64,000 bases of DNA from Marsupella aquatica (Eukaryota; Plantae; Marchantiophyta): the NCBI GenBank assembly GCA_973895155.1, contig OZ316895.1:17625437-17689436 (forward strand). The letters are read 5' to 3'. Each line of letters begins with the position of its first letter. Position 1 is the stretch's first letter. The notes beneath the pieces were generated by a model. It did no database searches and was not told the DNA's origin. It was given only the letters and a program-made list of their open reading frames with translations. A program made the position numbers and the translations under genes. This document shows, one piece after another, positions 724-55,862 of this stretch.

Positions 724-1244
724 AGCAGGAACACGAGCCGGAACTAGCAACACGAGAAAATGCGAGAAAATGTCGAGAAACAAACCAAATGACAACAAAA
801 CAGGTTCCGAAAGGGTTCCATAAAGGGCGGGCACATTTGAATTTTGAAAATTATTCCTTTAAGATTTGTACACATTATGGACAATGTCTTCATAAAAGCA
901 AGGAGGTTCGGGGAGGTACGGCTTGCCGGCTGTTGCAAGCTCCAATAAACTATTTCCTTTGTATCTTGAACACTAAAGTGACAATGTATTTTGAAATCCT
1001 GTGAGGCCGGGCACGAAGGCTCCAATGCCACCGCAAACTCGTTCAATTATTGTTTTGAATACAATAGTCATACTGTATTCACAAAAACTGCCATGGTGCT
1101 GAGCGGAGCTCGATTGCCGCCAGGGCTACGACGCTTGTGGACTGCGACGTTATTGACGGCCGACTACACATGACCAACCACGGTTTCCACAGGGTACGCA
1201 GTGGACTCGAACTGCGTGGTAAGTTGTTTCATAAGAACATGCCT

Positions 1245-1371
1245 GTACGGAGTGGGCCCGGAGGTCCATTGGGAGAGAATCTAAACTTTGGAGTCCATTG
1301 GGAGGGCGTGGGAAACTTTTGGTCCATTAAGAGAGAAAGTTGCATTTGGAGGTCCACTAAGTATATCTCTC
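1245..1371. mobile_element. Possible right terminal inverted repeat of a Mutator-like element
   Basis: Four spaced GTCCA(TT/CT) sub-repeats ending in TATATCTCTC (reverse complement starts GAGAGATATA), resembling MULE TIR architecture. The partner TIR is not in the window. Confidence 0.3.
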
Positions 1372-10242: not shown

Positions 10243-10270
10243 CTAGCTCAATACCTGTGCGTTGCACAAA
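10243..10270 (-). mobile_element. Helitron-like 3' terminus (hairpin + CTAG)
   Basis: The minus strand reads TGTGCAACGCACA (hairpin) GGTATTGAG CTAG|T. A second hairpin copy (CCCGTGCGTTGCAC) lies at ~10867-10880. Confidence 0.65.
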
Positions 10271-11110
10271 AGTAGTCGTGTCGGCCAAGATGTCATTGAG
10301 AAAAATGATGTAGTGTCAGCCAAGAGGTCGTGGAGAAAAAAGATGTAGTGTTGCCTAGGAGGTCGTGGAGAGAAAAGCTGTCGTGTTGCCCAAGAGGTTG
10401 TGGAGAGAAAAGATGTCGTGTTGCCCAAGAGGTCGTTGAGAGAAACGATGTCATGTCGCCCAAGAGGTCGTTGAGAGTAAAGATGTCGTGTCGCCCAAGA
10501 GGTCATTGAGAGAAAGGAAGTTGTGTTGGTCAAGATGTCATTGAGAAAAAAAGATGTTGTATTGGCCAAGAGGTCGTTGAAAGAAAATATGTAATGTCAA
10601 CCAAGAGGTCGTGGAGAAAAAAGATGTCTTGTCACCCAATAGGTCATTGAGAAAAAAAGATGTCGTGTTGGCCAAGAAGACGTTGAGAAAAAAAGATGTC
10701 GTGTTGACCAAGAGATCATTGAACAAAAAAATGTCATGTCGGCCAAGAAGTCGTTGAGAAAAAAGATGTTGTGTCGGCCAAGATGTCGTTGAGAAAAAAT
10801 TGTCATGTTGGCAAAGATGTTGAGAAAAAAACGTCATGTCGGCCAAGACATCGTTCACGGAAAATACCCGTGCGTTGCACAAAAGATGTTGTTAAGAAAT
10901 AAGATGTCGTGTTGCCCAAGATGTTGTTAAGTGAAAGATGTCACAAAGTAAAAAGATGTCTTAAGAAAAAGTAGTTTTGCCAAACATGCCATTGTGTGAA
11001 AGATGCTATTAAGAAAAATGTGTCATTTTGCCAAAGATATCGTGAAGTAAAAGATGTTAAAAGGAAAAAGGTGTTATTTCACCCAAGCTATGTTCTGTGA
11101 AAGATGTTAT
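10271..11110. repeat. Tandem array of ~31-33-bp units (GATGTCGTGTTGGCCAAGAGGTCGTTGAGAAAAAA)
   Basis: About 18 clear units to ~10860, decaying to ~11110. It sits next to the Helitron-like end. Confidence 0.9.
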
Positions 11111-11892
11111 GAAATAAAAAATCAAGGAAACTAAGAAGGAGTGAGTCTTTTTCTTTGTTTTGTTTTTTTACCCAAAATGCCCATGCATTTGAATGGCGAC
11201 CACTATAAATTGGAGCAATGTTATATTATTGGTTTCAGATTTAGTGTTTTAGGGTTTAGCAAAGATGACTATTCTCTCAATATCCTTTCAATTCCAGTGC
11301 GTTGCATAATAGATGTTGTTTGGTTAAAGATGTTGTTGAGAAATAGATTGTACGTGGTGCAACAGATAATCGTTGAATAAAAATAATAATTGTTAAAATA
11401 CATTATTACACAAAAACTTTTGTTGAGTGAAAGATATCATTGTGCAAAATAGAAATTGGGGTCCATGCAAGACAACTAAAAATTAACTAATTTCCAAAAA
11501 GTTAAATCTCCTTTTTAAGAGCAAAAGCCAAAATAATATAATGTCAACCTACTCTCTTCCCCTTAGTGCTCGCTCCCTACCAAAACCATTATCTCAAGTA
11601 AATCTTTTCACTTTCATGCCCCATAACCCCAATTTAAGGAAAACCAAACTTTGGAAATTCCGAAAATCACTAAATATTATTATTTTAATAAAAAGGGGGC
11701 GACATGACGCGTGGCTGCGCGTGAAACCCTGAAAATGACTGCAACGTCACATTTTAACCAATCCAACTTGACGGGACCAAGAGACATGCTCACGCGAATA
11801 ATAATAATAGAGAAATAAATCTTTGAGATCCTTTATATATGATAACCAGTATATAAGGAGTTTACAAATGGTTTCTAGAACGACAATACAAA

Positions 11893-13410
11893 TTAATCTG
11901 ATCTCATGCCGACTATTATTTTGGAAGCGTCCAAAATTGGGCGTCTGTTAAATTGCTCTACTAGATATCTATCTCCATGTCCCTGAATCACAGTGTCTTC
12001 CCATAGAGTATGATTATAATCATAATCTCTAAAAATAGATTTAACTGAAAGGATAATCTCTTCCATTGGCAATGACAAGCGGCTCATAAGAGTTTGCTAG
12101 CTTGCTAAGATACGGAATCAGCAAGTTAATCAGGAAACTGTCGTCGACCGACCCAAAATATTTGGGCGGAAATAATGATCCAACAACAGGATCTAAACAA
12201 GCATGAAATGCATCGGATTCGATAAGCATTATATTTTGCTGCAGATACGCCTTCGTATAAATTCCAACATTCTCAAAACACTTCAAAAATATCCGCTTAT
12301 TTGATGTCACCCCATCGCATAAGTAACAATGAGACTGATCCCAAATATACTTAAATGAGGCCATTTCCATCGCAATAAAAATAGATGCTAAAATCTGATC
12401 TAAAAGGTTCTTCCCAAGAGAGGACCAGATCCCTACATCAAAATTCTCAAAACAGAATCTCAAGAATTCGTGAAGATGAGGCCTTGGAAAAACGTATATA
12501 TTCCCAATCCGAATTCTAGTTGAGACCGCCATCAGTCGAGAATGCGGTGCATTGTAACAGAGTAGATGCTCCACGTCTAAAACTATGAGCCCATTTTCTC
12601 TGCTGCAATGAATCTCCTGTAGAGAAACACAAGAAGATGCATGAGCCCGTATGGATGTAGTCACGCGAATGGTCATGTCACATATTATAGAGACAACATC
12701 CTCTACACTCTGGCCATTGATAAGTGACGTCTGTTGAAGTGCTTGATAAGAACTTGATCCGCATGTCTCTGCACGTACAGATGCTCCCATATATCCTCGT
12801 TCAGATCCCAATCTCGATGTAGATTTCTAATCGACCAGATGGGATAATCAAACTTGTTAGCAAACGCAAGACAAAGCCCTGAATTTGATAGCTTTTGTAA
12901 ATATGGAATGAGCTCATCCCTCAAAAAGACATCATCCAACGATCCTTGAAACGACTTAGCGAACAATAATCCGCATACAACTGTCTGGCATGTATGGGAA
13001 GGACGGGCATCAATCTGGATTATATTCTCTGGTCGATAATCTTGAAACATATCACGTAGTCTCTCGATAGATTTGAAGACAATAGTCTTATAATTTTTCT
13101 TCACATAACCAAGATTCCAGCAATGATCCCGCGTGAACACATATATCAGCTACGACAGGTCGGTGCTCGACAACACTTCTGAAAGTATCTGATAAACCAG
13201 TTTATCGTCGAGAATAGACCAAACCATCACATCAAAATGATCATAACAGAATTTTATAAGATCATGAAGATGCGGCCTCGGAACGACACATAGAGATCCG
13301 ATACGAATTCCGAGTGTCGACTTGAGCTTAGGAGTATATTTTGAAACAGAGCACAGGAAGTTTTCCAGTCCTAAAACTAGAAGTTGAAGCGACCTGCTCC
13401 ACTTAGACAC
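11893..13410 (-). pseudogene. Two tandem degenerate FCP1/NIF-type HAD phosphatase-like domains
   Basis: Motifs LVLGLENFL..PRPHLHDLIKFCYDHFDVMVWS..NIIQID and IVLDVEHLL..PRPHLHEFLRFCFENFDVGIWS..NIMLIE. There is an in-frame TAG at 13150, frameshifts near 12725 and 12050, and a probable intron ending at the strong acceptor near 12617. Confidence 0.7.
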
Positions 13411-13541
13411 ATGTAAATGAACAATTCAATTCTCATATTATGCGATTGCAAACAACCACGCGACTGGGCGCGTCACTCCCAAAATATAAAGTTCAATTTA
13501 AATCAATTTATAAATAATAATTGATAATAAACAATAAACGT

Positions 13542-16500
13542 TTACTTATTGGACTTATCCCGGGCTTCTATAGCACGGTCTTTTTCGGCAGATAAGTATT
13601 TCATAAATTCGTCAAACTTTTCTAAATGGTCTTTATTCCCCTGATTACGAATGATCACATTTCTCCTCCAAAGATTCGTCTTATCAATATAATCTTTCTC
13701 AAGATTTTCTTGAGAGAACGTTGGAATCCCATATCCACTAAGGAGCTCGCGGAATGTCAACTTGTCAATTGACATATCGCATAGATATGGATATAGTTTC
13801 TTTCTAAAAAATAGGTCATCATCGAGCCCAAAATATGCATCGGGATACAGCGATGAATAGAAGTCATTAAGGCTCGTCTTATATGCAGCGTCATCGATAA
13901 GAATGACATTCTCGATGTTGTAATCTTTAATATCGGCGGCAATGTCGGAGAGGATGTCATTATTATTCTTCCCAATAAGTCGAGTTGATTCTTGTCCCCA
14001 TATAAATTTAATACGTTTCAAAACTTTGAGTCAAAGTATCAGCCTTACACAAGATAGAATATTCTGTTTGAACATGCACGACCAGATCGCAATGTCGTAT
14101 AGATCTGCCACCTTCTCAAGAAATTCCATTAAATCAGGCCTTGGATAGATAACCTTGTGCATCTGTCTCTCACCCCTTGACCGAATGGGCATCCCAGGGC
14201 TGATCTTCTCTGACCAGATAAGTACCCGATTCAGATCAAAAATTACAAGTCTCTTCTGAACCGGTGACTTCTTTGCCGATGGATTAGGCGCCATCTGTAC
14301 CTGTGATTTTTGTGCCGCAGGGTTTGGAGAACGTACTAGAACGGTCTGTTTGTTTCCCGCCTCCGGACGATCACCGGACTTCCGGACTGGTGCCTTCGAT
14401 ACTCGATCAGGGGGTTTCAGGATAGGCTTCTGTAAAACATTAAGAAATGAAAATAAGTTTATAATGCAAACGGTCGCATGACTACAAAGAGAGACATTGA
14501 AATGAAGTGTATTACCTGTACAAGACGGTCGTTCAGTGCTGGAATTTTGCCGGAAATGTCAATCATAGCAGCACGGATCCCGATAACTAGGTTACTTGCG
14601 GACGTCGGCTTGCGGAAGTCCATGTCAAATAACGACAAGACTATCTCCCTACAGAATTTCTCAATTTGATCCGCGGCAAAATTAATTTTGTTTCCTTGAC
14701 ACAAGCACTTGGCGTATCTCAAGATAAACACACCACAACTGTGGCCGTCACTCTGGTGAGGAATATCATTCCGATATATCCGTTCCCAACCTGAGAGATC
14801 CAAGTTGACACCAGTTCTCCAGCCAATTTTGTCGGCGTAGTACTTCCCAACAATATCTAGCACCCCAGGATTTTGTCGATTATGAACTAGAGAATCTAGG
14901 TACTCCAGCCGTTTCTCCTTCGGATACACAACTACCAATGACCAATGTTCTTTCACAGCATTGTGTACTAGAAAGACCAGTTTGTCATATTGACTGATTT
15001 TTAGCGGAAACTCCTTTGTCCAAGCTGCTCTCTCCTCGTCGAAAATGGTAGGATCCATGGAGAGAAGCTCAAAATGGTGTGTTTGGAAGAATTTGACAAG
15101 GTTTGACTTTCCAACTCTATCGAGAATCAGTTCCAGAAAACTCAAATAAGCGTTAATTATATCATCGGTGAGCAACTTGCGCGGTCTCAGACACATCATA
15201 TGTTTCCTCTTGATCGAGTGTTGTAAGAACTTGGTCAATAGCTCTTCCATATCCTTAGAAGGATCAAGGCATTGATCTATTCGACTAGCCAAATTTTCAA
15301 AAAACTGCAAAAAATAGAGATTTTAGTACGCCTTCAAATAACGTACTGAGGTTGTAGCCTAAGGGTTCTACCTTAGAAAACAGAAACAATAACAAATCAA
15401 TAATAAAATAATGACATCTATAATAGAAACTTTAAGCTTATAGTTTGCGAATGACCTTTGGATTGGGTGGATCCAGCCTTTTCGCAGCTGATCTCTTGGG
15501 TGCCTCAATCGCAACAACATCCTTCAGCCCTCCTCGAGACCGTAGTGATCGCTCCACCGGACCAGTTTGCGAAGGTTGGAGCAATGAGGTGGGAAGACCT
15601 TCAAATGGTTGTGGCATTTGATTGAAATATTCCACAATCTGGGAATCCGATTCCAAAATATCCGATGCCACAATTTCTGTGCAAGTGACCTCTGCAATAT
15701 ATCGGGGTTGAGACCACAAACTCGGTCGCGTCAAGTCAGCTGTTAGTCTCTTAACGACTTGAGCCGAGTCTAGTGCCAAAGATGTTCCCAGGTCTTGCAC
15801 TCGATTCTCGGAAAAGTGGACATTATTGATGATTGTCTCCATTCTGGATGCAGTGGCAGTCTTCTCCTCGGTAATCAAAAGACCCTTCCAATATTGCAAA
15901 GCAAGGACTGCCTGGACTCGGAGCTACTCCGGTGAATATTTATTCCAATCATCCAACGAGACCGTACTTAAGGGTGGATCGTTAAATTCAAACTTCGGGC
16001 GAAGAAAATAGTCTAATATTTTCTTCTTAACTGCAACTGAGGGTGAAGAAGGCTTCTTCAAATTCAGCCTTATTTTCGGTAGACGTTGTGCCTCAGGAAT
16101 AAGCAAAAGATCCTTGGCCCTCTCGGCCTCCTTCCTCGCTGCCTCTAGTCTTGCGGCTTCTTCTCTCTCCAGTCTTGCAGAATCGACCTTTTCCGCCTCC
16201 AACTTCTCCGCCTCCACCCTCTCCGGTCTTGCGGTCTTGTCCGCCATCCTCTCGGCCAACAGCCTCTCAGCCGCCACACTCTCTGCCTTGGCCCTATTTG
16301 CCTCTATCACTAAAAGGACTCTCGCAGCCTCCGCGTTCTCAGCTTGGGCTTTCTCAGCCTCTGCGTTCTCAGCCTCCGCTTTCTCCGCCTCCACTTTCTC
16401 CACCTCCGCTTTCTCAGCCTGGGCTTTCTCAGCCTGGGCTTTCTCAGCCTCCGCTTTCTTGGCCTCCGCTTTCTCAGCCTAGGCTTTCTCAGCTTGGGCT

Positions 16501-19500
16501 TTCTCCGCCTCCGCTTTCTCAGCCTGGGCTTTCTCAGCCTGGGCTTTCTCCGCCTGGGCTTTCTCAGCCTAGGCATTCTCAGCCTCGGCTTTCTCCTTCT
16601 TCTTCGCGGCAGTTGCTTTTCTAGCTGTTGCCTTTTTCTTCTTAGCCTCCTTCTTTTGAAGCTCCTCTTGCCAGGCCGCCTCTTGCCGGGCCGCCTCTTG
16701 TCGGGACGCCTCCTCCTGTCGGGCCGCCTCCTTCTTTTGAAGCTCCTCTTGCCGGGCCTCCTCCTGTCAGGCCTCCTCCTGTCGGGCCGCCTCTCTGGCC
16801 TCCTCCTGCCGGGCCGCCTCCTTCTTTTGAAGCTCCTCTTGTCGGGCCGCCTCTAGCCGGGCCTCCTCCTGCCGGGCTGCCTCCTCTTTGGCCTCCTCGT
16901 GCCGGGCCGCCTCCTCTCGGTCCACCTCATGTCGAGGCTCCTGTGTGGCCTCTTCATCGGAGTCCTCAGCGTCCTCAGAACCCTCCATCTCCTCGTCCTC
17001 TTCATCAACGTCCTCAGCGTCCTTCATCTCCTCTCCGTCACTCTCTTCATCTCCTCTATTGTCGGAATCTCCGACGTCGTTCTGCGTATCGATCATCCAC
17101 TCTGGATCTTGGTCATTGACATCCCCATTCGCGTCACCTTCCGCGTCACCTTCCACATCATCTTCCCCCTCACCATCTGCATCACCATTGCTCCCTACAT
17201 CCTCAACATTGAAGCCGCAGTTGACTTGATCTGAATAAAATCAGATCATTTGATAAGAATGACTCACGCGCATATTTGCGTGAAAAGAAATGTTATGAAT
17301 GTCCACGCGCATGTTCGCGTGACGCAATAAAAAGTAAGAGGTTTCAAAAGTAACCTACCTTGGATTGGCCCACTAGGGTACTCCGTTGGTCGAATGTACA
17401 ATCGATCGAAATCTTCAGAGAGTGCATACTCTTGCAATAATTGATTACAAATATTATCAGGGATATGTTGTTCATGGAGGACATCCAAAACATCAGCCCT
17501 GAGAGCAGTTACGGATGGACGGTACTTCATTAATTTATCTATACATTTTTCTATACTAGCCCGTACTGGGTCAATCAATGACAGCGTTGTATCAATTGTC
17601 GCCGTGGTGTGTTGCAAGAAACAAGACAACTCCCTATGCGTTGCCACAGGGCAGTAATATTTTACATTGGATCCAGTATCCTGTAAAAAAACCAAAATTA
17701 GTTCACAATATTAATTGAGAATATAATAATCTAAATAATCTTAAATTGAAATCCCAAAATATAAATCTCAAAACTTACCATTAAGCATTGGATCAAGTTC
17801 GTTCCCTCACCAAAGCATATAGCCCATTCTCCACATTGGACGAATTGACTAACAATACTTTCAAAGAATGGAAGTATCTTTTCTGAGGAAGGTGTCGTGA
17901 ACTCGCCGCTCTCTTCAAAATTGGCTATCTTCTCAATCCGATATTTGGAGACCAATTGGAACTCGAGGGCTTATGGATCGCCCATTGTGCTGAAGGCCAA
18001 GCTGTGAAAAGCGTAGGTTACAATAAGCTTCTTCTCCTTTGGCCACTTCTGAATATAATGGCTATTGACAGCAACGTAGTGTGTGTACTTCCCTAATTCC
18101 CGTTTGATTAAGTACGACTCAACGGGAGAGGCTACAATAATAACCACATGGTGTGGTTTTGCCCCTATCTCGCTAGTAGCACGAAATAACCCCTCATAGA
18201 ATGAGCAATTTGGCGGACGCAAATCTCCCATTGATGAGGGATCAAAATAAATCAAGCTCGCAAGGTTCTTGTCTTCACATATGATACAGTCTGCAAACCC
18301 AACATTTTGTATATCCTGCAGGGATCGCAATTTCAACCTCTCACCGACCGGCCGCACTAGTTGGTTTCCTTGACTATCAACTGATTTCCGTATTCCTTCC
18401 ACCAACCTGTAGAATATCGGGTCGATCTCTTTCAACAAATTATCATTACTAATATTTACATTTAAGCACTTCTTCAGATAACCACTCAACGCATCTCTCA
18501 ACTGCTTCAGCACCATCTTGTCGAGCTTAAAGCGATCAATCATTCCTTTGACCCGCAATTTCCACGCTGAATCTGTCAGAATTTTTAGCTCCGTCCGGGT
18601 GGATGTATCCCCGTTGAGTTTACTCAATAATAAAATCTCAAACTCAACTTTTGTCTTCTTCTTTATACAGAATTGCTCCAAACTCATGCTGGTCGTTGAC
18701 AACACTGGAGCCTTAGAGGACTTCCTTGCCTTCCCAGATTTCACTTTGATGCTTCGGTTTTTGAGTATAGACAGTCTTCCGCTCAACATATATTCCGCTG
18801 CCTTTCGAAGAACCGAGTCTGAGCACCCTTGACAAGAACGGAACGTCTTCTTCAGAAGATGATAAGCACATGGATTATCCGCAATTTTGACGGCGTCCCT
18901 CTGTAAAATTCCGTTGTAAATTACAAGCTCTCCTGTCCTTGATAGTTCGTAGACCTCCATCCACTTCTTGAATGTTTCGTCCTCCATTGTAAAGAGAAAC
19001 GGAGCCAATTCTCCAAATTTCATCATTTCGTTCTTCCCCATTTGAGCCCATGGGCAAACAAAACTCGTAGCTCTCATAAATACCTGAAAAACAATGGAAA
19101 CATGACAATTCTAAGCTTGATGCGACCGTTCGCGTGACAAAAGTTTAAACGATAATGTGATCGAAGAGGGTTATTTATATACCTTCCAATTTGGATGACG
19201 ATAATATGATCCAGGCCGCCCAAATGAGTTCCAGATATTACGACACTGTCGTACAATGGTGAGAAACTGTCCTTCTTCCATTGATGTTTGATGATAGTGG
19301 TTCAGAGCTTTCGATAATCCCATCAAATGAACATTATTGTCGTTGTTGAGCGTTGCCCAAAACATTATAGCTTCTACAGTACCGCAAGCGTCTCGTACAA
19401 CTTGGCTGACTTTGTCGTCCTCTTTCAGCAATTTGTACGCCATTATTGTGTGTTGGCCTCCGAGTATCCAAAAATGACTGGTCATAATATCCTCCTCCTT

Positions 19501-20421
19501 TGGTGCCGAATCGTAGGGCGCCCCATTGTAGTCAGGATCTCTGTCGGCCTCCGACTGAACCCACTTCACAGGGACTAAAAAGCAGCATCGCTTTTCGAAC
19601 TTTATAGCCGAATGAGAAAGGAGTGAATTCTTTAGCCTATCTGTGTAATCCTGATTCCACTCTCGGCACTTGATGTGGTCTGGTGCAAGATGACAACGTG
19701 ATGTCTCAACAAAAAATGACTTGCTATTAAATATATTCATAGCACTATATTCTTTGAGGAAAGAATCGAACAGAGCCCCAACATTTGCTGAGGTAATTAC
19801 TTTCGGAAGATTCTCCGCCGAGTATACTTCAACCTTGCTCATTGGCAGGGCCTTTCCCAAGCGAAATTCCTGGTTGAAAGGAACTCTCTGGAACTCAAGT
19901 ACGTCAATAATGTATTGACAAATCAAACCTCCCGTTGATCCCTCTGGATCGGAAGGATATCCCACACTAGTAACCTTTTCCAAGGCGTGCCTTGCACCTA
20001 GAAGATCATCGATTCTGGGCTGATTGAAGGTTACATATTGCGTTCAATCCAAACAAATGCTTATTTTGTCCTCCTGCTGGTCGTCGCTGACTAGCAGAAC
20101 CAATCTCTCTGTACACTCTTTAACTTTCATGTTCTTCTCAAAGAAACACTTGAGAATTTGTGATCTCTCCAAAACTGTAGCTTTATCATTTTTTGCCACC
20201 ACAAGACGGACAACGCCATTGCGAACGACTGTTCCAAAATCGGATATCTTAGTCGATTCAAAGAGATGGATACTCTTTGTCTCCGTTGTTCTCTCTCTGA
20301 TTGACTTTCCTCGATATGCAAGTATGGATGTCTCCGCGGGAGTCATTTTTGTCTTGGCTTTCTTACGAGAAGCAGCTTTAGACGAGTCTCTTTTCTGCTT
20401 TGAAGTTTCGGTAGGATCCAT
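13542..20421 (-). pseudogene. Six-exon ~2105-codon multidomain gene: ParB/Srx-like, degenerate beta-class DNA MTase-like, acidic tract, EAARQE/AEKAQ coiled repeats, Ulp1 (C48) protease, FCP1-like HAD phosphatase
   Basis: Exons 20421-19183, 19083-17779, 17680-17359, 17230-15456, 15304-14516 and 14429-13542 are joined in frame by GT-AG introns (the 15455 donor is weak). There are seven in-frame stops (20044, 17971, 16767, 16569, 16479, 15924, 14031) and no frameshift. Motifs: FWILGGQHTIMAYKLL; LIYFDPSS...EKILPFFESIVSQFVQCGEWAICFGEG; EHWSL..YLDSL..HQSDGHSCGVF; LVIFDLNRVL..RPDLMEFL..IAIWS..VILIDD. Confidence 0.75.
16100..16930 (-). repeat. Coding tandem repeats: 15-bp AEKA(Q/E) units and 18-bp EAARQE units
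   Basis: (TTCTCAGCCT(G/C)(G/C)GCT)n at ~16330-16600 and (GCCGGGCCGCCTCCTCCT)-like units at ~16660-16930 on the + strand. Confidence 0.9.
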
Positions 20422-20496
20422 TCTAAAATAGACAAATATTGAAAGTTAAACGTTTATTATAAAATACTAACACGCGCATGGTCGTGTCGTGCCAAA

Positions 20497-21027
20497 TTAC
20501 ATTTTAGGAACGTTTATCTTGACCCAATCTTCTCGCTCATCTTCATCTAATCAAAACCAAAGGTTCCTAAACGTGTCAAGTTCAGATCCTTCAAATCCAC
20601 CCAGAATGTCCAGCGGCGGGAGAGTTTTGATGGATTCTGTAAATCTTAATGCTACACTCCGTGAAGTCAAATGCCTTCGAAGCGATTCGTATCCTGGTCT
20701 ATCAATGAAGTCGTAAGCTACTAAGGTGACCGTCACCCAAGTACTACTATAAGTAACTATGTGGCACCACTTCTTACTGACTGTTCGAATGGCGATCAAG
20801 TCCATGACCCGATTTTTAATCGCAGTATCCAACAAATTTCCAAGACAGTGAAAAAACTCTTTGACTAATGGCCAAATATATTTCTCGACAATATCGTCCG
20901 GAAGACCGGGTATCAGGTCTTCAGCTTGACTCCATATCATGTTTCGGTTGATAACCTTTGCACGTGCAATGCGCTCCATCATCATTTGACGATGAGATTT
21001 TCGATTCATGTCAAAGGACTGCAGCAT
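20497..21027 (-). pseudogene. F-box-like cargo ORF 3 (premature TGA at 20551)
   Basis: LIPGLPDDIVEKYIWP...DLIAIRTVSKKWCHIV. The frame continues past the TGA (LDEDEREDW) in homology with the paralogs. Confidence 0.6.
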
Positions 21028-21061
21028 AATATGGAAAAGATTAAGAACAAGAACCTATCCA

Positions 21062-21628
21062 TTAAGAACTGGGACCACCTAGATTCTGAGAAAATCTACC
21101 AAACCTTTCGATTAGAACATCTCGTTCTTCCTCATCTAAATTGTTATATTTGTTCGTAATCAATGCGATGTCGTCAAAAGTAGTAGTCCCAAGAACAGAT
21201 ATTTTTGGAAGCATAGAAATATCCTGTCAAATAACTCGACAGACTGAGTCAAACTCCAACTCGTCAGTTTCGGGTATGTCATAAAGAGCTTTATTTGTGA
21301 CATCGACAATCCGGTTTGCTTGTTTGAGGATAGCCCATAACCTTGTATTTGTAACTAAAAAGTTCCACTTCTTGCTACAAGCTCCAAGCCGAATAAGGTC
21401 TCGGACCCTATTGATAACCAAATCGTTATCGAGGTATCGATATCCACGCAATCTTTCAATTGAAATAAAGTGTTCGTAGAGTATTGGCCAAATGTTTGAA
21501 ATGACCAAAACATTTGGTATTCCTCCAATGAGACTAGAGGAGGTTTCATCCAGGGTATCCCATATTGTTTTTTGTTTCCTTTCATGAGATGAAAGGAAAT
21601 CTCGAGCCTCATTCAAAAGTTGGCTCAT
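21062..21628 (-). pseudogene. F-box-like cargo ORF 2 (premature TGA at 21227)
   Basis: LIGGIPNVLVISNIWP...DLIRLGACSKKWNFLV. The frame continues (QDISMLPKISVLG...LDEEER) in alignment with ORF 3 (SIKTLPPLDILG...LDEDER). Confidence 0.55.
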
Positions 21629-21693
21629 CCTACTTTTATCATATCACAAAACATTGTTAGAAGACATACGACGCGCTTGGTCACGTAAGTTAA

Positions 21694-22245
21694 CTAGAAT
21701 TCCTTAAAAGCGTAGATGTCACCCTCAAGGTATCCAACTTCGTGGCATCTGACTGTAAATTTCCATTTTTCAAGAGGGTGAAGAGCATCGTAAGTCTTCG
21801 TGAAGAGTTCCCTAAGATCTCTGGACATTGACCCCATGAATTTAATTCTTGGGTATTTCTGGAAGAAACTTTGAACTGTCGATGAGAGAGACTCATTTCC
21901 GATTGGTTTAGTAGGATTTCGTGGGAAAGCCAAATCTAATAAACTCAACTTCATTACACCTAGAAGATAGGTATTCCCAACAAGGTGGCGCCATCTGCGA
22001 CACACCGAAGATAGTCCTACAAACTCATCCAATTCCTTTATTGAGAAATTTCCTGCATTAGTCGAGGAATTAAAAGTCTCCTTGATCCGAGGCCATATCA
22101 ATTTCGCGACAATGAAATCTGGAAGTCCAGGTAGTAGTGTTTCAACAAATACAGAATATCCCGCCAGTAGACCATCTTGGCTTCTGTCCAAAACATCAAA
22201 TATTGGGCATAGATATCTAAAGCTCTCCAGACCAGGTTCGCCCAT
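21694..22245 (-). CDS. F-box-like cargo ORF 1, 183 aa
   Basis: LLPGLPDFIVAKLIWP...LSSVCRRWRHLV F-box pattern; paralogous to the next two ORFs. Confidence 0.6.
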   Translation of the reverse strand: MGEPGLESFRYLCPIFDVLDRSQDGLLAGYSVFVETLLPGLPDFIVAKLIWPRIKETFNSSTNAGNFSIKELDEFVGLSSVCRRWRHLVGNTYLLGVMKLSLLDLAFPRNPTKPIGNESLSSTVQSFFQKYPRIKFMGSMSRDLRELFTKTYDALHPLEKWKFTVRCHEVGYLEGDIYAFKEF

Positions 22246-22385
22246 GACTCTTTTCAGCCAAATGATATATCCCAGAGATTATTTTCACGCGACTGGTCGC
22301 GTCTACAAATCAGAATGTATAAACAATTCTTTGAGAGACTGATTTTTTTGGGTCACAACGTGACAAATCATAAATGTTGCTTTGT

Positions 22386-23010
22386 CCTCTAATAGAACCA
22401 GTCAATGAGAGAGCTACCTCAGACGCGACTGGTCGCGTCAACTGAACCTAAACAACTATATCTAGTGAACCTTCCTTGTGGATATTTGGATATGGTACGC
22501 GCTCAGTAAATCTATCCAGTTTCCTTCTCACACACGACTGGTCGCGTCAACTGGTCCTAAAAGGAACCTTACCTCCTCTAACAGAACCAGTCAATGAGAG
22601 ATCTACCTCAGACGCGACTAGTCGCGTCAACTGCTCCTAAAAGGAACCTTACCTCCTCTAACAGAACCAGTCAATGAGAGAGCTACCTCAGACGCGACTG
22701 GTCACGTCAACTGAACCTAAACAACTATATCCAGTGAACCTTCCTTGTGGATATTTGGATATGGTACGCGCTCAGTAAATCTATCTAGTTTCCTTCTCAC
22801 ACGCGATTGGTTGCGTCAACTGGTCCTAAAAGGAATCTTACCTCCGCTAACAGAACCGGTCAATGAGAGAGCTACCTTTGACGCGACTGGTCGCGTCAAC
22901 TGAATCTAAATAACTATATCCACTGAACCTTCCTTATGGAGATTTGGATATGGTATGCGCTCAGTAAATCTATCCTGTTTCCTTCTGACACACGACTGGT
23001 CGTGTCAACA
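22386..23010. repeat. Tandem array (189-bp unit plus an 80-bp subunit) carrying 7 palindrome copies
   Basis: Unit starts at ~22386, 22575, 22655 and 22844. GACGCGACTGGTCGCGTC-type sites at 22422, 22531, 22611, 22691, 22800, 22880 and 22989. Confidence 0.9.
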
Positions 23011-24087
23011 GCTCAAACAACTTTTGGACACTAGGATAATATAGTGATACAACTATGATTACTGACCTGTACGGACAAGGAAATCCAAGTAAGCATGATT
23101 TCATTCATTTGTATTCATTCATGAACTTTACAATAATTCAGATGTTTGAGCTCTGTCATTGTGAAACTATTATATATCAGAAGTTTAGAGAATGATTCAG
23201 CTAAGATGATTCAATTTAGCAGTCTACTGGTTGTATTCATCAATTAAAGGATTCAGTGTAATGAGATTCACATAACATGAGAGTTTATATGATTAAATTC
23301 ACAGCGTGCAAGTTTGTAATGAGTTTGTAATGAGTTTGTATAATTCACACATATTTGAGTTTACAAACAAACCGCATTATAAAAACTCAGCTTAACAATC
23401 AAGAGAAATTTTAGCAAACAACAATCAACACCAGCAGAAAATGTAGAAATTGCACCTGAATTCTGAAAAATTGATGTAATCGTCTGAGAGATTGACGTCC
23501 AAGCACTTGAAGACCTTGCTACGGCATTCCAGAAAGTAAATATAAGATTGAAGATATTAATATGCTAAGCAACAACAACATAGCTTCTATACTTCTATAC
23601 ATAGAGCTTTGCTGCCACCAATTGAATAACATGTGCTTAATGCTAAGGAACTCATTATATCGAGTTAAAAAGACTCTTTCAGAAGTACAATCAAAGCTGT
23701 GGATAGGCAAACTGAGCATGAATAAAAGTGCACTAAACTTGAAGATTCAAAGAGGTGAAACAAACCTGAATGCTGAATGGAAGGAGCTGAAACAAGCTGC
23801 CAAAAAGTAGTTCGAGCTGCTGAAACACGTTGATCGAGCTGATATGAGCTTAAAATTGGCTGACACGAGCTGATACGAGCACTCCCAAAAAACTAGCTGC
23901 AACGAACCCAACGGGCTCCTAAGAATCCCTTCGAGCAAACTAGAAGTGAATACGAGCTGTAAATGCGAGCTGCAACATGCCAACGAGCTCCTGGTCGAAA
24001 CGATCGATAATTACTAAGAGTAGCAACGCGCCGACAAGCACCTGACCACAACGAACGAGCTGCAACGACAAAAATGAAATCCAGGGC

Positions 24088-24157
24088 AGGAGCGAGAGCG
24101 AGAGTGAGAGCAACGAGAGTGAGAGCGACGAGAGCGAGAGCGAGAGCGACGAGAGCA
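24088..24157. repeat. (GAGAGC)n-like simple repeat, CT-rich on the minus strand
   Basis: GAGCGAGAGCGAGAGTGAGAGC... run, preceded by scattered ACGAGCT heptamers (23810-24065). Confidence 0.8.
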
Positions 24158-25000
24158 GGCGTGCAAAAGTCTAGGGAGCGATGTCCGGGTGACCGTGTTT
24201 TCTGGCAAGAGCATGTTGGCTCTTTTGAAGTTAACCTTGCATGCTCATAAGTTCTACACTAAAATTAAAATGATAATTCTAGTAACAAGGGTAGTGGGTA
24301 TTAAGAAAGGTTCAGGTGAAACTAAAATACTGTTAAACCCTACTTCACCATACTTGCGGACCAACACATCACAAAAATTAGTTTTCTTACAACATATGAT
24401 CCTAATACCTCCTAGAGAAAATGAAATAGGAATATCATCCGGACTCCTATTCAGATCCATGACTTCAATAAAGGACAAAGATGATGCACTCCCACTCCTC
24501 TCGGTACGACACCACTGGGTATATTATTGGCTCGTTAGAAACCATAACAGCAGTTGCAAACTGAGCTCCAAAATGATAGGTTAGATTTTGCCTCATAGAT
24601 GGTTTGTCTAAAAGATGGACTCTAATCAAAAACAGATTACGAAGGGGAAGATCAGGGATAACTCTCTCTCCTGGATTCATGATGGCTCTCCTATTCCTTT
24701 GCTATCCGGGCCAAAGGATGCCCCACCCCTATATTCCCAAAGAAACCTTATTCCCTAAGGTCCCATCTATAAGTCTACCACTCATTCCTTTGCTATCCGG
24801 GCCAAAGGACGCCCCACTACTATGTTCAAGGCACAAAAGAGCTTCACAACCTTGAATGATAAACACTGCGGAATGAGGGGAGAGTGCCCCTCACCACTTT
24901 ATTTATAGTGCACACCAAGAGGGCATGGATCAAACCCAAGCACTTGGATGAAGGCCAAGTGTCAAACATCTAATACCAAAGAGTGTGCTAGTACTGTTCA

Positions 25001-25230
25001 TAGTTGGTGAAACTACTTTTAGTAGGTGAAACTACCATGCGTTGGTGGAACTACTATGCGTTGGTGGAACTACTATGCGTTGGTGGACCTACTGTGCGTT
25101 GGTAAAACTACTGTGCGTTAGTAAAACTACTATGCGCTGATGGACCTACTGTGCGTTGGTAGAACTACTATGCGTTGGTGAATATTATTGTAGTTGGTGT
25201 TACTCATATGCATTGGTGGAACTACTATAG
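25001..25230. repeat. 20-bp minisatellite (CTACTATGCGTTGGTGGAA-like), ~11 copies
   Basis: Visible tandem units across 25001-25230. Confidence 0.9.
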
Positions 25231-26799
25231 TCCGTTAATATAGCTAAAGAGTTTTAATAAAATCTAAATTTAATAATCTAACTACTAAATTACTTATATA
25301 ATCTATAACATATTAAAACAAACAATTTTTTATAACTTAAGAGAAAATCACGACAGCGAGAAACAACAATAATGAACAGTGAACTCGAGACCGTGGGCGC
25401 CGACACTAAGGAAGGACTAATTAGAGTATTGTTTTAGCATAACCCTAATAACAGCCTAGCGACAGGAAGATTCCAGATGATCTCTGTACACTCCACCATC
25501 GATTGAACAAACTATGCAATCGTGAAAAAAAGATTACCGGATTCCTTTTGATTTGCCGTACTAAAGGAGATTTCTATTTGATCGCCAATTTGAAATTTAA
25601 ACCGGTAATTATGCAACTGCAAAAGATTGTTAGTGGGGACCCCCGGATCCGTATCTTCACTATATCCGCCAATTCAAATCCAAAATATGAATGAACAATA
25701 ACTTTCTCACGATCGTTCCATCACGTAGTGGAGGCGAACTTTAAAATCATTCCATTTTGGTAGTGGAGACCGTCGGATCCGGATCCGTACTCCACTCTCT
25801 ATCTTGCCAATTCAAACCCATACTCTAAACAACGTAAAACGATTCTCACGGTCGGGGAGAACCGATATTCAAAATCAATCCTGTACAATGATTCTCACGA
25901 CTGGAGACTCAACCAATTTTCAAAATTAAAATTGAGTCCAGATGAACACATCCTTCATGGAGTCAATAGACTGATCTCATTGCTCACGGATCATTCTTCA
26001 TTTTCAGTTTCTCCTGACCGGGATACTAGCTGGGCTCTCAGCGGAGGCTGATCCAAGGCACATTTGAGGTGGAGCAGATTGGATCATTCGACTATTCCAA
26101 TCGGAGGCGGAGCTCATTCAAGCAACGCTGGCGCAATTCTTGTTGTATCACCTTCAATCTTGGGGAGAGCACATCCAATCAAGCGGGAGAGTTGCGACGA
26201 AGCAAGACGACAAACATTTAGAACCTCCATAGTCTGCCTCATTCATCAAAGCATTCTAGCGGACCAACAAAGAGCGGCTATTCTGAAATCATTGTCTGGT
26301 TGAGGATTTTGATCTTGATACGATCAATAAGTTGTCATTCTCTGGTGGTGGGATTCGGTCACGATACTCAAGGAAATTGGAGTTCAAAGGAGGAGGCTTA
26401 ATTGGCTGGGACGAGGAGGCTACGCTGGAAGGAAGAGGCTTGGCTGGGAGGAGGGTTTCCGCCAACATCGGAGGGTTGCCGCCAACATTGCTAAGACCAC
26501 ACGCAACTGAATAACTTGTAAGTATCAATCAGCATTAATTCCGCAATAAATGAGGAGAGTAGTTGTCTTAAATCATGCATTCAATGCATGAATTGAGTCA
26601 ATGAAGTTATGGTCCAATTTCTCACTCCGATTTTGATCAATTCGTGTTTCAAGTCCAATACAGAAGCAATGTATCAGAAGTACTAGTAGAGGATCCGAAT
26701 GAATTCTCTAGTCTAAAATTGTATGGCGTTCAAGTATAGTTGTTCGTACGTTTTGCTATTGTTTATTATAGTCGACGGCCTAGCAAAATGAAACGTAAT

Positions 26800-27980
26800 C
26801 GAGGTCCATTTTTCAGATCAGACTGATCTCAACTTGTTAGTAGGATGACCTGATTTTTTGGTTACACATGTAGTTCATCACACGCACAGTCGCGTGAACC
26901 AATTTATCTCATGTCTTTTGATATTGTTTATTGTAGTCGACAGCCTAGCGAATTGGCCAGCAATCTATTTTAAAACTAACGTCTTCATTTCATCACGCGC
27001 ATGATCGCGTTAATGTTTTAGAGGTCAGCGAAAGCTCTGCACTCTTAGATGTAATCGCCCTTTATTTCTCAGATCTTCCTGATCTCAACTTGTTAGTAGG
27101 ATGACCTATTTTTTGGTTACACATGTAGTTCATCACGCGCACAGTCGCATGAACCAATTTATCTCGTGTCTTTTGATATTGTTTATTGTAGTCGACAGCC
27201 TAGCGAATTGGCCAGAAATCTATTTTTAAACCGAGGTCTGTGTTTCATCACGCGCCCGGTCGCGTTAATGTTTTAGAGGTCAGCAAAAGCTCTACACTCT
27301 TAGACGTAATCGCCCTTTATTTCTCAGATCTTCCTGATCTCAACTTGTTAGTATGATGACCTATTTTTTTGGTTACACATGTAGTTCGTCATGCGCATAG
27401 TCGCGTGAACCAATTTATCTCGTGTCTTTTGATATTGTTTATTGTAGTCGACAGCCTAGCAAATTGGTCAGCAATCTATTTTAAAATTGAGGTCTGTGTT
27501 TCATCACGCGACCGGTCGCGTTAATGTTTTAGAGGTCAGCGAAAGCTCTGCACTCTTAGACGTAATCGCCCTTTATTTCTCAGATCTTCCTGATCTCAAC
27601 TTGTTAGTAGGATGACCTGTTTTTTTGGTTACACATGTAGTTCATCACGCGCACAGTCGCGTGAACCAATTTATCTCAGGTCTTTTTGATATTGTTTATT
27701 GTAGTCGACTGCCTAGCGAATTGGCCAAAAATATATTTTAAAACCGAGGTCTTCGTTTCATCACACGCCCGATCGCGTTAATGTTTTAGAGGTCAGCGAA
27801 AGCTTTGCACTCTTAGACGTAATCACCCTTTATTTCTCAGATCTGCCTGATCTCAATTTATTAGTAGGATGACCTGTTTTTGGTTACACATGTAGTTCAT
27901 CACGCGCACAGTCGCGTGAACCAATTTATCTCAGGTCTTTTTGATATTGTTTATTGTAGTCGACAGCCTAGCGAATTGTC
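26800..27980. repeat. ~255-bp tandem array, ~4.5 copies, two palindromes per unit
   Basis: TGATCTCAA(C/T)TT(G/A)TTAGTA(G/T)GATGACCT at 26825, 27080, 27335, 27591 and 27848. Nine palindromes lie between 26879 and 27918. Confidence 0.92.
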
Positions 27981-28224
27981 AGTCAGAGGAATCTCGATTT
28001 TTCCTTGATTGCAAAAATGGTTACATTGATCCCGAAGGACTTCAGATGTGGAATCCATATCCTCTAGCACTATCCAGGAATTTAACTGACCTGGTCTTTC
28101 GAACACTATTTTCCACGGGACGAAATTAAGCTACACAGTATCTATAACAGGTTCTAACTTGAACTACTCTTGAATCTGTAGTTCTAATCTTCAACTACTC
28201 AAAATATTGTTGACTTTGATCAAG

Positions 28225-28766
28225 TCAGTCATTCCAAGATGAAGGCATCCACTCATCGGTGTCTGGTGTGGATTCCCTTGAATCCATAAATTCTTCCTTT
28301 GCCCAAGTCCTAACGTCCATAGATTTTCTCGGCTTGCTCTTTCTGTAATACAAATCAGAATCTTCGTTCATCTCTAATTGCCTTTTCTTCGGTGCGTCCA
28401 CTTTCTTGGCCTCCTTCTTGACTGTCTTAGCGTCTACTGCTGCTTCCCCGAAATGGATTCGACGCATGCTCTGGCCTTCAACTTCTCCCCCCTCGAAACG
28501 GATTCCACGAGGGCTTTGCCCTTTAACTTCTCCCCTGATGCCATCTTTGTAGTCATCTTTGTCGGATTGGTCTCCATCTGATCTTCCATCGACAAATGTG
28601 GTGAACAATGTCGTCTCTCACAAAACATTTGACCCAATTTAGTCACCGTAAACATTATATTACATCGCTGACACATTCTGTAAGGAGTACCACGAATTCA
28701 ATACGTTGAACCTTCTGAATTGTCCGTTAGAACATCCTCATTCTTTGAGCTCAGCGGAGTAGTCAT
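28225..28766 (-). pseudogene. Small Cys-motif/charged protein remnant
   Basis: ATG 28766 is in frame, through one TGA, with MCQRC...FCERRHC. An apparent frameshift then leads into a D/E/K-rich tail ending at 28225. A TATAAA lies on the minus strand near 28896-28901. Confidence 0.35.
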
Positions 28767-29118
28767 CGCCCTTCAAACAAGAGATGCGGACTGAGACTAA
28801 GAATTGGAAATGAGAGAGCTGATGTGCGAATAGATTATCCAGTAGCCAAAAAGTGGAATGCGTGGGGGAATGAGCAGTAGGGATCATCTCAATGCTTTAT
28901 ACTGTTTAGTCTCCACTAGTCATTGTACATAGTGGTTTCTAGAAGAGAGTGCGCGTTTGACTGGCGCGTATTAGAATTGGCGGGAAGTCCAGTTGTCCTC
29001 TAATTATGGCTTTAATTTCACATTTGGCGACCGCCCCGGGATTACTGATTGCTAGTGAAGTACTGAGATTTCTTATGAGGGTTACTGACTGTCCGGTGTC
29101 CACTCATTGGTAAACTGG

Positions 29119-29700
29119 TACTGTCCACTCATTTTTTCTAAGTGGAGTTGAAATGATTGTTCGTAATCAATTGTAGTCGTTCTCATTCACTTGAAATGAC
29201 TGACGGACCATGCATAATCTGTTACCGGTATGTGTGATGCCTTTAGATCCGTAATTGTATCTTCCTGTCTCACGCGCAATCGTATCTTACTTATGAAGTA
29301 CCAAGTACGAGCTAGAGTTTGGGCCTAGCCTTCTAGCTTCTACGTCGTAGACCCTGTTATCCCTACATCCTCTGACTAAGGTCACGTGACTAGTCGCGTG
29401 CAGGGCAGTGCATTGACTACATTTTGCCTACTTATTGACGGTCGTGACAGGACAATGCAGTTCACGGACGTTTTACTGGCGCTTATTAGCATTATTATCC
29501 TCAGTAGTTACTGACTGTCCACTCATTTGTTCTGAGTGGATGTGAAATGATTGATCATAATCGATTGTGGCCGTTCTCATTCATTTGAAATGACTGACGG
29601 ACCATGCATAGTCTGTTGCGGGTATGTGTGGTACCTCTAGGGTCACGCGACTAGTCGCGTGCAGCGCAGTGTATTGACTACATTCTGCTTATTGACCGAC
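29119..29700. repeat. Dispersed direct repeats upstream of the transposase, with two palindromes
   Basis: ~29119-29245 repeats at ~29515-29635, and 29381-29425 repeats at 29642-29685. Perfect CACGCGACTAGTCGCGTG at 29644-29661. Confidence 0.8.
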
Positions 29701-29766
29701 GTGATAGGACAGTGCAGTGAAATTGACGGATGTGACATGATTGTACGCTTACAGTGATATTCTCTG

Positions 29767-32700: not shown

Positions 32701-33170
32701 GGCAACAGTGATGTGGGACCAGCAAAAGATAAACCTCCTGAGAGTTTTAACCCTAGGGTTGATGTTGTGAAGGGCTGTTATGTGTTGGTACGGCCGGACG
32801 ACTCAGACCTGGATGTTTATCCCGTCCATATGGGGTTAGTTGTTACAGATGTGGTAGAAGGACCAGTGAATGAACAAAACCTTCTTACTCATGTATGTGG
32901 CGTTGAGTGGTTTAGACCATTTATGGCAAAGAAGCAACGTGGTCAATCAGACTGGCAGCCAAGAGAGTGGTGGGCAGATTCTTGGGATAAGAAATGGGAA
33001 CGTGATCCAACTCCAATATACAAGGAAGCTGAGACAATAGATGTTTCCTCTGCCTTGTGGTGTTTCAAAGCATGCAAAGGACCAAGACAGGGCTGGTAGG
33101 AATTCCAAAGAATGTTGCTGTCAAGGCAAGAGACTATCTCTTGACATGCATAGTAAGTGACAAATCCTAG
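29767..33170 (+). pseudogene. Sola1-like (DUF7869-type) DDD transposase with two N-terminal Tnp1/En/Spm-like domains
   Basis: CC..HCC and LCLEAW motifs, FSKCTTC, IHD/KMDHSKT, LQLDNYASDNKN and FMVVGHTHEDVD. In-frame TGA at 30037, frameshifts near 31095, 31330, 32710 and 33090, and an intron at ~31688-31870. Confidence 0.7.
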
Positions 33171-33965
33171 ACAGTAATGAAACATGTAGTTTAGCATACA
33201 ATTTAAAAGGCAACTCATAATAGTAGTAGCCAGAGAACTCAAGTTTAGACAAGTCTTATCGTCTAAGTTAGTTAGTTGGTTAGTTTATTTAAAATATAAT
33301 ATTAGTTAGTGGGGTCTTAGTTTGGTGATATTAAGGCATGATATTATTGACATTCAAATGAATGTCCAGTAGACATTGTAATATACAACAATCCTATTAA
33401 TTGTTGTAAAGGGTGGTCAATCTTTTTTGTATTCAACCCTATAGTAATTAAATAGACAATTGAAACAATGAATGACAATTTAATTAAGAATTTGTGCATG
33501 GATCAAGAGGTACTTGATGTCATTTAGTGATGCATTGTTATAAAGATCTTGCAACAAAACATTTGAAGTTTTTGACTATCCCACCAAATGTTAAAGAGGT
33601 TGATCATTCATTAACTTATAATATTTAAATAAAATTGGAATTAATCTAATAATTCAGTATTCCTTAAATTGGGGTTCCATGCCAAATGTACTCTAAATTA
33701 ATAGACCATAAAATAATATACTTACACTTTAATGCTCCATGCCAAAAAGTATTATACGCAAGCTACAAAATAACTACAATAGCACATGCAAGTACTCTAT
33801 GATATATTATATCTACCTTGTACTATAACTTACAGCCAATTTTAGGTTCCCATCTCACTCAATCCAAGAGCCATAAATAATTCAAGAAAATATCTGATGG
33901 CTTAGCTTTGTTCCCTCCTTTTTCATTTTTGTAACGGGACGAAGGACTAAAACTGGCGGGAATCG

Positions 33966-33981
33966 TTATTATAGTAGAAGA
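33966..33981 (-). mobile_element. Helitron-like 5' terminus
   Basis: The minus strand reads A|TCTTCTACTATAATAACG. Paired with the CTAG|T end at 10243 it would restore an AT target site. Confidence 0.4.
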
Positions 33982-55740: not shown

Positions 55741-55862
55741 TGAGAATTTTGGCGTCGCTGCCGGGGAACAAATCAAGGATGGTTTGAAGTACAGGCAGTG
55801 AATGCCAAAAGGAGGTTAATTCAGTGAATCTGGAATAAACAAAAGAAAGGTGGAAGTTGACC

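Follow-up and report, generated by a model that had tools for sequence, protein, structure and literature searches.

A decayed ParB-like fusion gene as accessory gene of a likely 22-kb DUF7869 transposon in the liverwort Marsupella aquatica

The closest described counterparts of the locus reported here are giant DNA transposons of algae. In the brown alga Ectocarpus, the available text on Sola1-1_Ec32 presents a DNA transposon of ~21.5 kb in which a gene for a protein with ParB and N4-cytosine/N6-adenine (N4C/N6A) methylase domains lies opposite the transposase gene; this accessory protein, of 1104 amino acids, has a methylase predicted to be active and is suggested to bind to, and modify, the element that encodes it (PMC12477816). 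The red-algal Plavaka (EnSpm) giants of 17-19 kb are described as carrying a ParB-like gene, PAG3, beside tandem arrays of inverted repeats, and their PAG2/PAG3 cassette, which includes a PF01555 methylase, is said there to move between transposon types (10.1101/2025.02.11.637652). ParB-linked methylases in algae are also noted in an accessible part of PMC4738411. ParB-based self-recognition and epigenetic protection of eukaryotic transposons was proposed in 2025 for red and brown algae, in accounts that, as available, stay at the stage of a proposal. Here, we describe a 64,000-nucleotide stretch of the genome of the liverwort Marsupella aquatica (contig OZ316895.1, positions 17,625,437 to 17,689,436 of the forward strand; hereafter the window, whose own numbering is used throughout), in which a fusion gene on the minus strand (13542-20421) would encode a ParB-like domain, a methyltransferase-like domain, a Ulp1-type SUMO protease domain and a phosphatase-like NIF domain. 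The fusion gene is one of many copies of a transposon accessory gene, and this copy has decayed.

The likeness to Sola1-1_Ec32 lies in the size of the element, in the opposite orientation of the accessory and transposase genes and in the combination of ParB-like and N4C/N6A methyltransferase-like domains; it is drawn from the description of the algal element, not from its sequence, and the accessible text mentions neither a Ulp1 nor a phosphatase domain. Compared with its brown-algal counterpart, the window gene is longer (2105 amino acids), has lost the methylase motif, has gained the Ulp1 and NIF domains and resides in a land plant. The Plavaka PAG2/PAG3 system is similar in being a giant element with a ParB-like gene beside repeat arrays and a methylase in the cassette, but in its description ParB is fused to a 2-oxoglutarate oxygenase and the methylase to a SET domain, in separate genes and alongside another transposase (10.1101/2025.02.11.637652). 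Since algal Sola1 and Plavaka elements have already been described with accessory genes of the ParB plus N4C/N6A-methylase kind, we regard the locus as a land-plant variant to which Ulp1 and phosphatase domains were added, and not as a new kind of system. A preliminary description, made from the letters of the window, had recognized the ParB-methylase combination and took it as typical of prokaryotic mobile elements; on the available accounts it is a known accessory pairing in algal transposons (PMC12477816; 10.1101/2025.02.11.637652), and both the palindromes and the transposase gene described below had been overlooked. Our literature searches turned up no publication on the land-plant family or the four-domain fusion, but this is a weak test and absence from print is only weakly shown, since the same searches also missed PMC12477816, and the supplements of the algal studies may list plant relatives.

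A second comparison is with anti-silencing proteins. The motifs recognized by VANC in VANDAL elements lie in introns, intergenic DNA and tandem arrays (PMC5735166, as far as its accessible text goes), and some VANC genes are reported to carry a Ulp1 domain (PMC13317346), a domain also carried by grapevine CACTA and Mutator elements according to part of PMC2528002. The VANC/KIU systems resemble the window locus in having an element-encoded protein, a short motif distributed in this way and, in some cases, Ulp1. They differ in that demethylation has been shown experimentally for them, their motifs are non-palindromic and 8-9 nt long and their transposase is of the Mutator type, and the accessible portions of PMC5735166 and PMC13317346 report no ParB or methylase fold. 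A ParB-type anti-silencer is described for bacteria, namely VirB of Shigella (PMC10770331, in the part available), and ParB-N6_N4_Mtase fusions are stated to be frequent in phages (10.1101/2025.10.10.680097, available text). With bacterial ParB, Noc, KorB and VirB, the window protein shares an N-terminal fold followed by what is predicted to be a helical DNA-binding region, and candidate palindromic sites; it differs from the bacterial ParB clamps by lacking the arginine of the Box II GxxR motif and a parA partner, and by being encoded by a spliced eukaryotic gene.

A dispersed multi-copy unit with a transposase gene

The fusion gene belongs to a unit present in tens of copies, as read from contig depth. 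We summed the contig depth from four public runs (sets X2 and X1), a measure that is not itself a copy number. It is 434-1515 (X2) and 1077-3015 (X1) over 17000-22300, and 453-1863 (X2) and 1217-3658 (X1) over 28000-34023, and drops to 21 (X2) and 53 (X1) at 35279-35500. The second of these high-depth regions holds a decayed, CpG-depleted gene on the plus strand (29791-33099), divergent from the fusion gene and recognized by its Pfam match to DUF7869 (E 1e-35), its reading frames and its depth; we take DUF7869 to be a Sola-type transposase. The N-terminal part of this gene (29791-30260) encodes two similar beta-rich segments that have no Pfam match and, we assume, recall the DUF8039-type domains of plant transposons. 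What we observe is thus a dispersed multi-copy unit carrying a transposase gene, as in a cut-and-paste DNA transposon.

Candidate subterminal inverted repeats with a 17-nt exact core lie at 11625-11693 (left arm) and 33606-33676 (right arm), the depth halving in the bin 33773-34023 beside the latter. The pair scores 45, against a maximum of 35 for shuffled sequences, and beats 200 of 200 shuffles. It encloses all the palindromes and the transposase gene, and this bracketing of palindromes, fusion gene and transposase suggests an element of ~22 kb. The fusion gene and the DUF7869 transposase very probably belong to one and the same element. We ruled out an endogenous virus, there being no viral hallmark gene within 11600-34000.

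The window copy is a pseudogene, given its seven premature stops (at residues 126, 784, 1110, 1176, 1206, 1391 and 1943), each a TGA, TAA or TAG that is a single transition away from a sense codon. At the first of them (TGA, 20044-20046), most contigs carry a G at 20046 on the plus strand, which gives a sense codon. Among the 40 best-supported contig differences in 17000-22300, 30 have T/A in the window where most copies have C/G, and 24 of these 30 sit in a CG or CHG context; the corresponding figure for 28000-34023 is 21 of the 28 rows used, out of 40 listed. These C/G-to-T/A differences in CG/CHG context indicate that the window copy has decayed under methylation. This copy is dead, and a function for the host is unlikely; a single-copy host gene is ruled out by the contig depth together with the premature stops.

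Domains of the predicted protein

Six minus-strand exons can be joined into a single frame of 2105 codons and a stop, free of frameshifts, through five GT-AG introns of 99, 98, 128, 151 and 86 nt, just as the preliminary description had proposed; the motifs it quoted are all present. The introns are T-rich (T 0.37-0.51, GC 0.19-0.38). Exon 1 (19183-20421) encodes the N-terminal region and the ParB-like domain (residues 1-413) and contains the premature TGA mentioned above; exon 2 (17779-19083, residues 414-848) covers the helical region and the larger part of the methyltransferase-like domain, with a premature TAA at 17971-17973, and is followed by exon 3 (17359-17680, residues 849-955). Exon 4 (15456-17230, residues 956-1547), with four premature stops, specifies an acidic tract and a linker of EAARQ/AEKAQ repeats, exon 5 (14516-15304) the Ulp1/C48 protease domain (Pfam match 14654-15175), and exon 6 (13542-14429) a NIF/FCP1-type HAD domain (~13785-14252) with a premature TGA at 14031-14033.

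At junctions 1 and 2, the unspliced relatives P0001, P0002 and P0003 leave the window alignment at identical donors, and junction 1 is crossed by the annotated Calypogeia liverwort proteins P0086 (aligned over residues 30-516, E 1.6e-83) and P0027 (residues 334-764, E 5e-65). In the exon-1 alignment, where intron 1 lies, many unspliced relatives stop a few residues past a W/Y-x-V pattern, which suggests that this may be an old, conserved intron. Support for junctions 3-5 comes from the sequence itself, and from the gene models of moss P0031 and fern P0044, each of which predicts a single protein that has a ParB-like domain and carries NIF at its C-terminus.

The ParB/Srx-fold domain (residues ~231-379; 19285-19731, minus strand) is best seen in an AlphaFold2 model of the N-terminal part, built from a 48-sequence alignment and confident over this domain (predicted local distance difference test, pLDDT, mostly 87-98). 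In a structure search of 48,161 PDB chains, the top five matches all had the ParB fold: PadC (Z 8.4), KorB (Z 8.2), SerK (Z 7.7), pNOB8 ParB (Z 7.6) and Atu1540 (Z 6.7). A second structure comparison returned ParB/Srx-fold proteins in all 28 of its top rows (ParB, Noc, KorB, PadC, SerK, SbnI, Srx-like), with Caulobacter crescentus ParB matching at Z 9.6 and a root-mean-square deviation (rmsd) of 2.4 A over 97 residues; taking both comparisons together, Z ranges from 8.2 to 10.1 against PadC, KorB, ParB and Noc. Foldseek gave probabilities of 0.95-0.99 for ParB, Noc, PadC, Srx and SbnI, its PDB E values all being above 0.001, and most of the named viral structure matches of this domain were ParB-like. 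The model thus supports the assignment of the N-terminal domain to the ParB/Srx fold superfamily, a resemblance first noticed from the letters. Sequence methods gave little: a single-sequence fold prediction of the region yielded no confident model (pLDDT 33), PDB sequence searches gave no credible match for the two N-terminal domains, for the long relatives or for the transposase, and an NCBIfam search of the family had no match. PHROGs gave weak ParB-like matches only (phrog_1033 in 5 of 54 members, best E 0.031) and Pfam a weak DUF6551 match in 3 of the 54, with none in the first 950 residues of the window protein.

The residues kept by the family in this domain are R253 (38/38), G322 and H324 (40/40), and S370 and N374 (48/48). 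Box II, noted in the preliminary description as GQHT in place of GxHR, indeed reads so in the window; in the 40 motif-bearing members among the 54 examined, the arginine of GxxR is gone from every one, the residue after GQH being T (20), S (18), F (1) or N (1). This makes a canonical CTP-gated sliding clamp doubtful. Judged by its sequence, the N-terminus is ParB-like in architecture and not a canonical clamp driven by cytidine triphosphate (CTP), and the fusion protein is more likely to be a site binder that acts independently of nucleotide or with an altered nucleotide. The helical domain that follows (residues ~432-557; 18652-19029, minus strand; pLDDT mostly 70-94) is the predicted site reader. 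Alignments of the model with ParB, Noc and KorB chains run on to model residue 387-392, and extend through the DNA-binding region for KorB (155 residues, rmsd 5.7) and Noc (168 residues, rmsd 6.0); residues 432-557 are accordingly modelled as a predicted DNA-binding region like that of ParB, Noc and KorB. The preliminary description took the gene to be of bacterial ancestry and reused as a DNA reader; the depth and the stops mark it as a decayed transposon accessory gene.

The methyltransferase-like domain (residues ~660-860; 17645-18345, minus strand) spans intron 2 and is degenerate, with DPSS at motif IV and FGEG at motif I. We scanned for the motif blocks of beta-class amino-methyltransferases at sites picked by eye in advance in four proteins, the window model, P0031, P0033 and P0044. 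The X-I-II block ranked, in this order, 1/2036, 1/1350, 4/2195 and 14/921 at the expected sites in a first scan, and 1/1661, 1/960, 1/905 and 12/830 after low-complexity sequence had been removed from the background, a result matched by 0 of 150 column-permuted profiles. The motif IV block ranked 6/1664, 39/963, 40/905 and 2/830 and was equalled by 2 of 150 permuted profiles. The order IV ... X-I-II of beta-class N4C/N6A methyltransferases is, on these scans, apparently retained. Profile methods, in contrast, found no methyltransferase: the PF01555 profile had no match in pieces of the window or in relatives, a hidden Markov model of 34 beta-class methylases had none either, HHalign against the same 34 gave a probability of at most 3.4%, and only 0.7% between the window family and P0031/P0033 over this region, and the ESM Atlas offered no usable match for it. 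Motif IV reads DPSS in the window, DCSV in P0003, DFRF in P0031, DLRA in P0033 and DTTH in P0044 and is unrecognizable in P0027, so that the catalytic (D/N/S)PP(Y/F/W) motif, including its DPPY form, is absent from 6/6 sequences covering the site. Motif I is usually DPFxGxG, a form that we did not see in this domain. The degenerate methyltransferase first proposed therefore stands on its motif blocks, which score best or near best at the named sites, but not on Pfam, HMMER, HHalign or the fold model. Methyltransferase ancestry with loss of catalysis is the probable history suggested by these motifs, and catalytic activity of the domain would be very surprising.

The two C-terminal domains bear out their first description. 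Peptidase_C48 (Ulp1) is matched in Pfam with an E of 6.7e-18 (65.8 bits against a cut-off of 20.7), and the His-Asp-Gln-Cys set is present as H1667, D1684, Q1731 and C1737, which we take to be the catalytic residues. The NIF match in exon 6 has an E of 1.7e-6 (28.2 bits against a cut-off of 21.8). Motif I of NIF/FCP1-type HAD domains is DxDx(T/V), and the window domain reads DLNRV instead; from this sequence, its phosphatase activity is uncertain.

A three-sequence profile search found 56 relatives among 1.84 billion representatives. Among 30 relatives checked for their source, 6 had a species name, namely Ceratodon purpureus, Adiantum nelumboides, Diphasiastrum complanatum and Calypogeia fissa (three), so the family is represented in a moss, a liverwort, a lycophyte and a fern. 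None was found in phage records or in viral, metagenome or prokaryote contigs, and a word search among longer proteins returned none. The relative P0033 is a protein of 2264 amino acids and apparently lacks introns, since it is a single open frame on a 7.4-kb contig. Because P0031 and P0044 have NIF without Ulp1, the ParB-like, methylase-like and NIF domains look like an older core to which Ulp1 was added in the family. In the ESM Atlas, the top look-alike of P0001 was DUF3723 (PF12520; score 0.93, 155 of 256 features), with a recognition value below the method's own reliable range, and Pfam found no PF12520 match in the 54 members scanned; DUF3723, described in accessible accounts as an accessory gene of function unknown in giant transposons, the fungal Starships, is a lead only.

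Palindromes, CpG content and possible roles of the protein

Between 11706 and 29661, the window contains 23 copies of an 18-bp palindrome, CACGCG-N6-CGCGTG (up to 2 mismatches allowed), all in non-coding DNA. Nine are single sites (11706, 13457, 17265, 17304, 19119, 20471, 22286, 29383 and 29644), and the other 14 lie in two tandem arrays, one at 22385-23014 with periods of 80/189/269 nt and 5 palindromes, the other at 26793-27978 with 4.6 copies of 255 nt and 9 palindromes. The 23 found in 11500-30000 compare with 0.1 expected, and the other three window segments scanned have 0. None of the 23 is in coding DNA, although this makes up about half of the span; all three inside the fusion gene are intronic (introns 1 and 3), introns being 8% of the gene, and others flank its start and stop. 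Degenerate palindromes occur in intron 5 and between neighbouring open reading frames (ORFs), and one lies at 12662, within the interval of the second decayed gene described below. As with the VANC motifs, the palindrome is thus restricted to the non-coding DNA and tandem arrays of the element.

With the sites masked, the observed/expected (o/e) CpG ratio is 0.76-0.95 in 7/7 segments of 11600-29700 and 0.11-0.44 in 5/5 segments of 29790-33900: the palindrome-bearing part has kept its CpGs, whereas the transposase part has lost them. This contrast is a property of the family, since in both parts the deep contigs are close to the window sequence.

We consider it probable that the fusion protein binds the 18-bp palindrome. 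On balance, we lean towards the reading that the gene is an accessory gene of a likely 22-kb DUF7869 transposon whose product docks on the palindromes and likely delivers a SUMO protease and a phosphatase-like domain against silencing. The predicted ParB fold and helical region of the intact product would dock on the element's own palindromes, the long charged linker would let the Ulp1 and phosphatase-like domains reach across nearby chromatin, and these domains, held at the palindromes, would keep silencing of the element DNA at bay. That the protein counters silencing, as VANC/KIU and Shigella VirB do, is, by analogy, possible but tentative; the idea draws support from a palindrome layout that resembles that of VANC motifs, from the Ulp1 domain of some VANC proteins and from VirB being a ParB-type anti-silencer. 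Somewhat more speculative is the proposal that land-plant DUF7869 giants carry a ParB/parS-like self-recognition system, in which a phage-type ParB-methylase fusion with rewired catalytic motifs would load on the dispersed palindromes and bring in SUMO-protease and phosphatase domains, so keeping ~18 kb of the element free of CG methylation. If so, the sharp CpG boundary at the end of the palindromes would be the evolutionary footprint of self-recognition, and a second, independently evolved plant anti-silencing machine would exist beside VANC, common to mosses through ferns.

Several observations weigh against this reading. True termini and a target-site duplication were looked for and not found, no contig spans both the fusion gene and the transposase, and near-identical contigs are ~1.5x deeper on the transposase (598-1454) than on the fusion gene (402-827). 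The canonical ParB CTPase arginine of Box II was not found in any of the 40 motif-bearing members, and in the ParB folds tested in the accessible part of 10.1101/2025.10.10.680097 it is required for nucleotide binding. Superpositions past the ParB domain have rmsd values of 5.6-12.9 A and consist mostly of helical structure. The methyltransferase fold is unconfirmed by Pfam, HMMER, HHalign or the AlphaFold model, which over this region was built without exon 3, has a pLDDT of 26-66 and gives generic alpha/beta matches (STAS, SGNH; Z up to 6.7). None of the three long relatives (P0031, P0033 and P0044) has Ulp1. Finally, a palindrome-free copia element in the window also has a CpG o/e of 0.82, so that high CpG is unspecific and recent capture could explain the contrast.

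Of the other explanations, a role in transposition fares best, though it is unlikely. By compacting or bridging the 22-kb element, a ParB-like protein on the palindromes would present the element's ends to the transposase, leaving silencing unaffected, with TnpA of En/Spm as an analogue. The spread of the palindromes from 11706 to 29644 and the unusual length of the element would suit such a role, as would the loading and spreading of ParB-family proteins along DNA (10.1101/2025.10.10.680097, available text); but the palindromes are not clustered at both ends, with none past 29661 on the side of the right end, the CpG contrast tracks them, and chromatin is the setting suggested by the Ulp1, phosphatase-like and methylase-like domains. 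Less likely again, the transposase or a host factor would bind the palindromes and the fusion gene would be a passenger, its ParB-like domain being an enzyme of the Srx/DndB type. This would account for the missing Box II arginine, for SerK, SbnI and Srx also matching the fold and for the last two palindromes lying just upstream of the transposase. However, the structural match runs into a DNA-binding region that SerK, SbnI and Srx lack, and the palindromes lie in the introns and at both ends of the fusion gene.

It is improbable that the exons represent two or more adjacent genes (ParB-like, Ulp1, phosphatase) instead of one fusion. Junctions 3-5 are matched by no relative, the junctions have no RNA support and the linker is low-complexity, but every gap is a frame-keeping GT-AG intron of 86-151 nt, and the moss and fern models hold ParB-like and NIF domains in one protein. 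It is highly improbable that intact copies have an active methyltransferase-like domain which, with an altered motif, marks the element with N4-methylcytosine (4mC) or N6-methyladenine in the way suggested for the algal proteins: the motif order was recovered at the expected sites in four proteins, the palindrome is CGCG-rich and eukaryotic 4mC writers exist in Marchantia, but none of the six sequences (window, P0003, P0031, P0033, P0044, P0027) has a DPPY/SPPY-type motif IV, motif I is unusual, and the Marchantia writer is a different thing, retaining TSPPY in its available description (10.1101/2021.02.12.428880).

For land plants, the locus supplies a defined candidate site, a CpG footprint, candidate effector domains and a relative in a laboratory moss, Ceratodon KC19_9G122500; with site, footprint and effector domains defined, a hypothesis born in algae becomes testable in moss. 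If true, an anti-silencer made of a protein and an 18-bp site would be a tool to keep transgenes active.

Other features of the element and the window

Within the proposed element, a second decayed gene on the minus strand (12041-13440) has one or more NIF/FCP1-like domains (NIF E 1e-14). By depth, the high-copy unit also includes three short minus-strand ORFs at 20551-22278 with weak F-box-like matches (E 0.001-0.015, below the cut-off) and a 130-residue minus-strand ORF at 28225-28617 that has no Pfam match. A palindrome-free 19-nt tandem array of ~12 copies lies at 25002-25228.

To the left of the element, a 35-nt tandem array of ~17 copies at 10268-10943 decays towards 11450, with no tie to the transposon established. 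A minus-strand ORF of 257 residues at 85-858 has cysteine clusters and no Pfam or PHROG match; we presume it to be an OB-fold/RPA-type fragment. The window is land-plant DNA, as seen from its PPR gene, its HVA22 gene and its copia and gypsy elements. The gypsy-type element (51674-64000) has identical 152-nt ends as far as the window reaches, and a gag-pol frame interrupted at 60900; it also carries two further ORFs, of 799 (52159-54558) and 295 residues (56031-56918), that lack Pfam matches. A copia pol at 47653-51387 (minus strand), the one with the CpG o/e of 0.82 given above, has one stop between two ORFs. The other copia element (34225-41052) has 347-nt long terminal repeats (LTRs) that are 96% alike and a 5-nt target duplication, ATCCC, and the contig depth of its LTR is in the hundreds of thousands.

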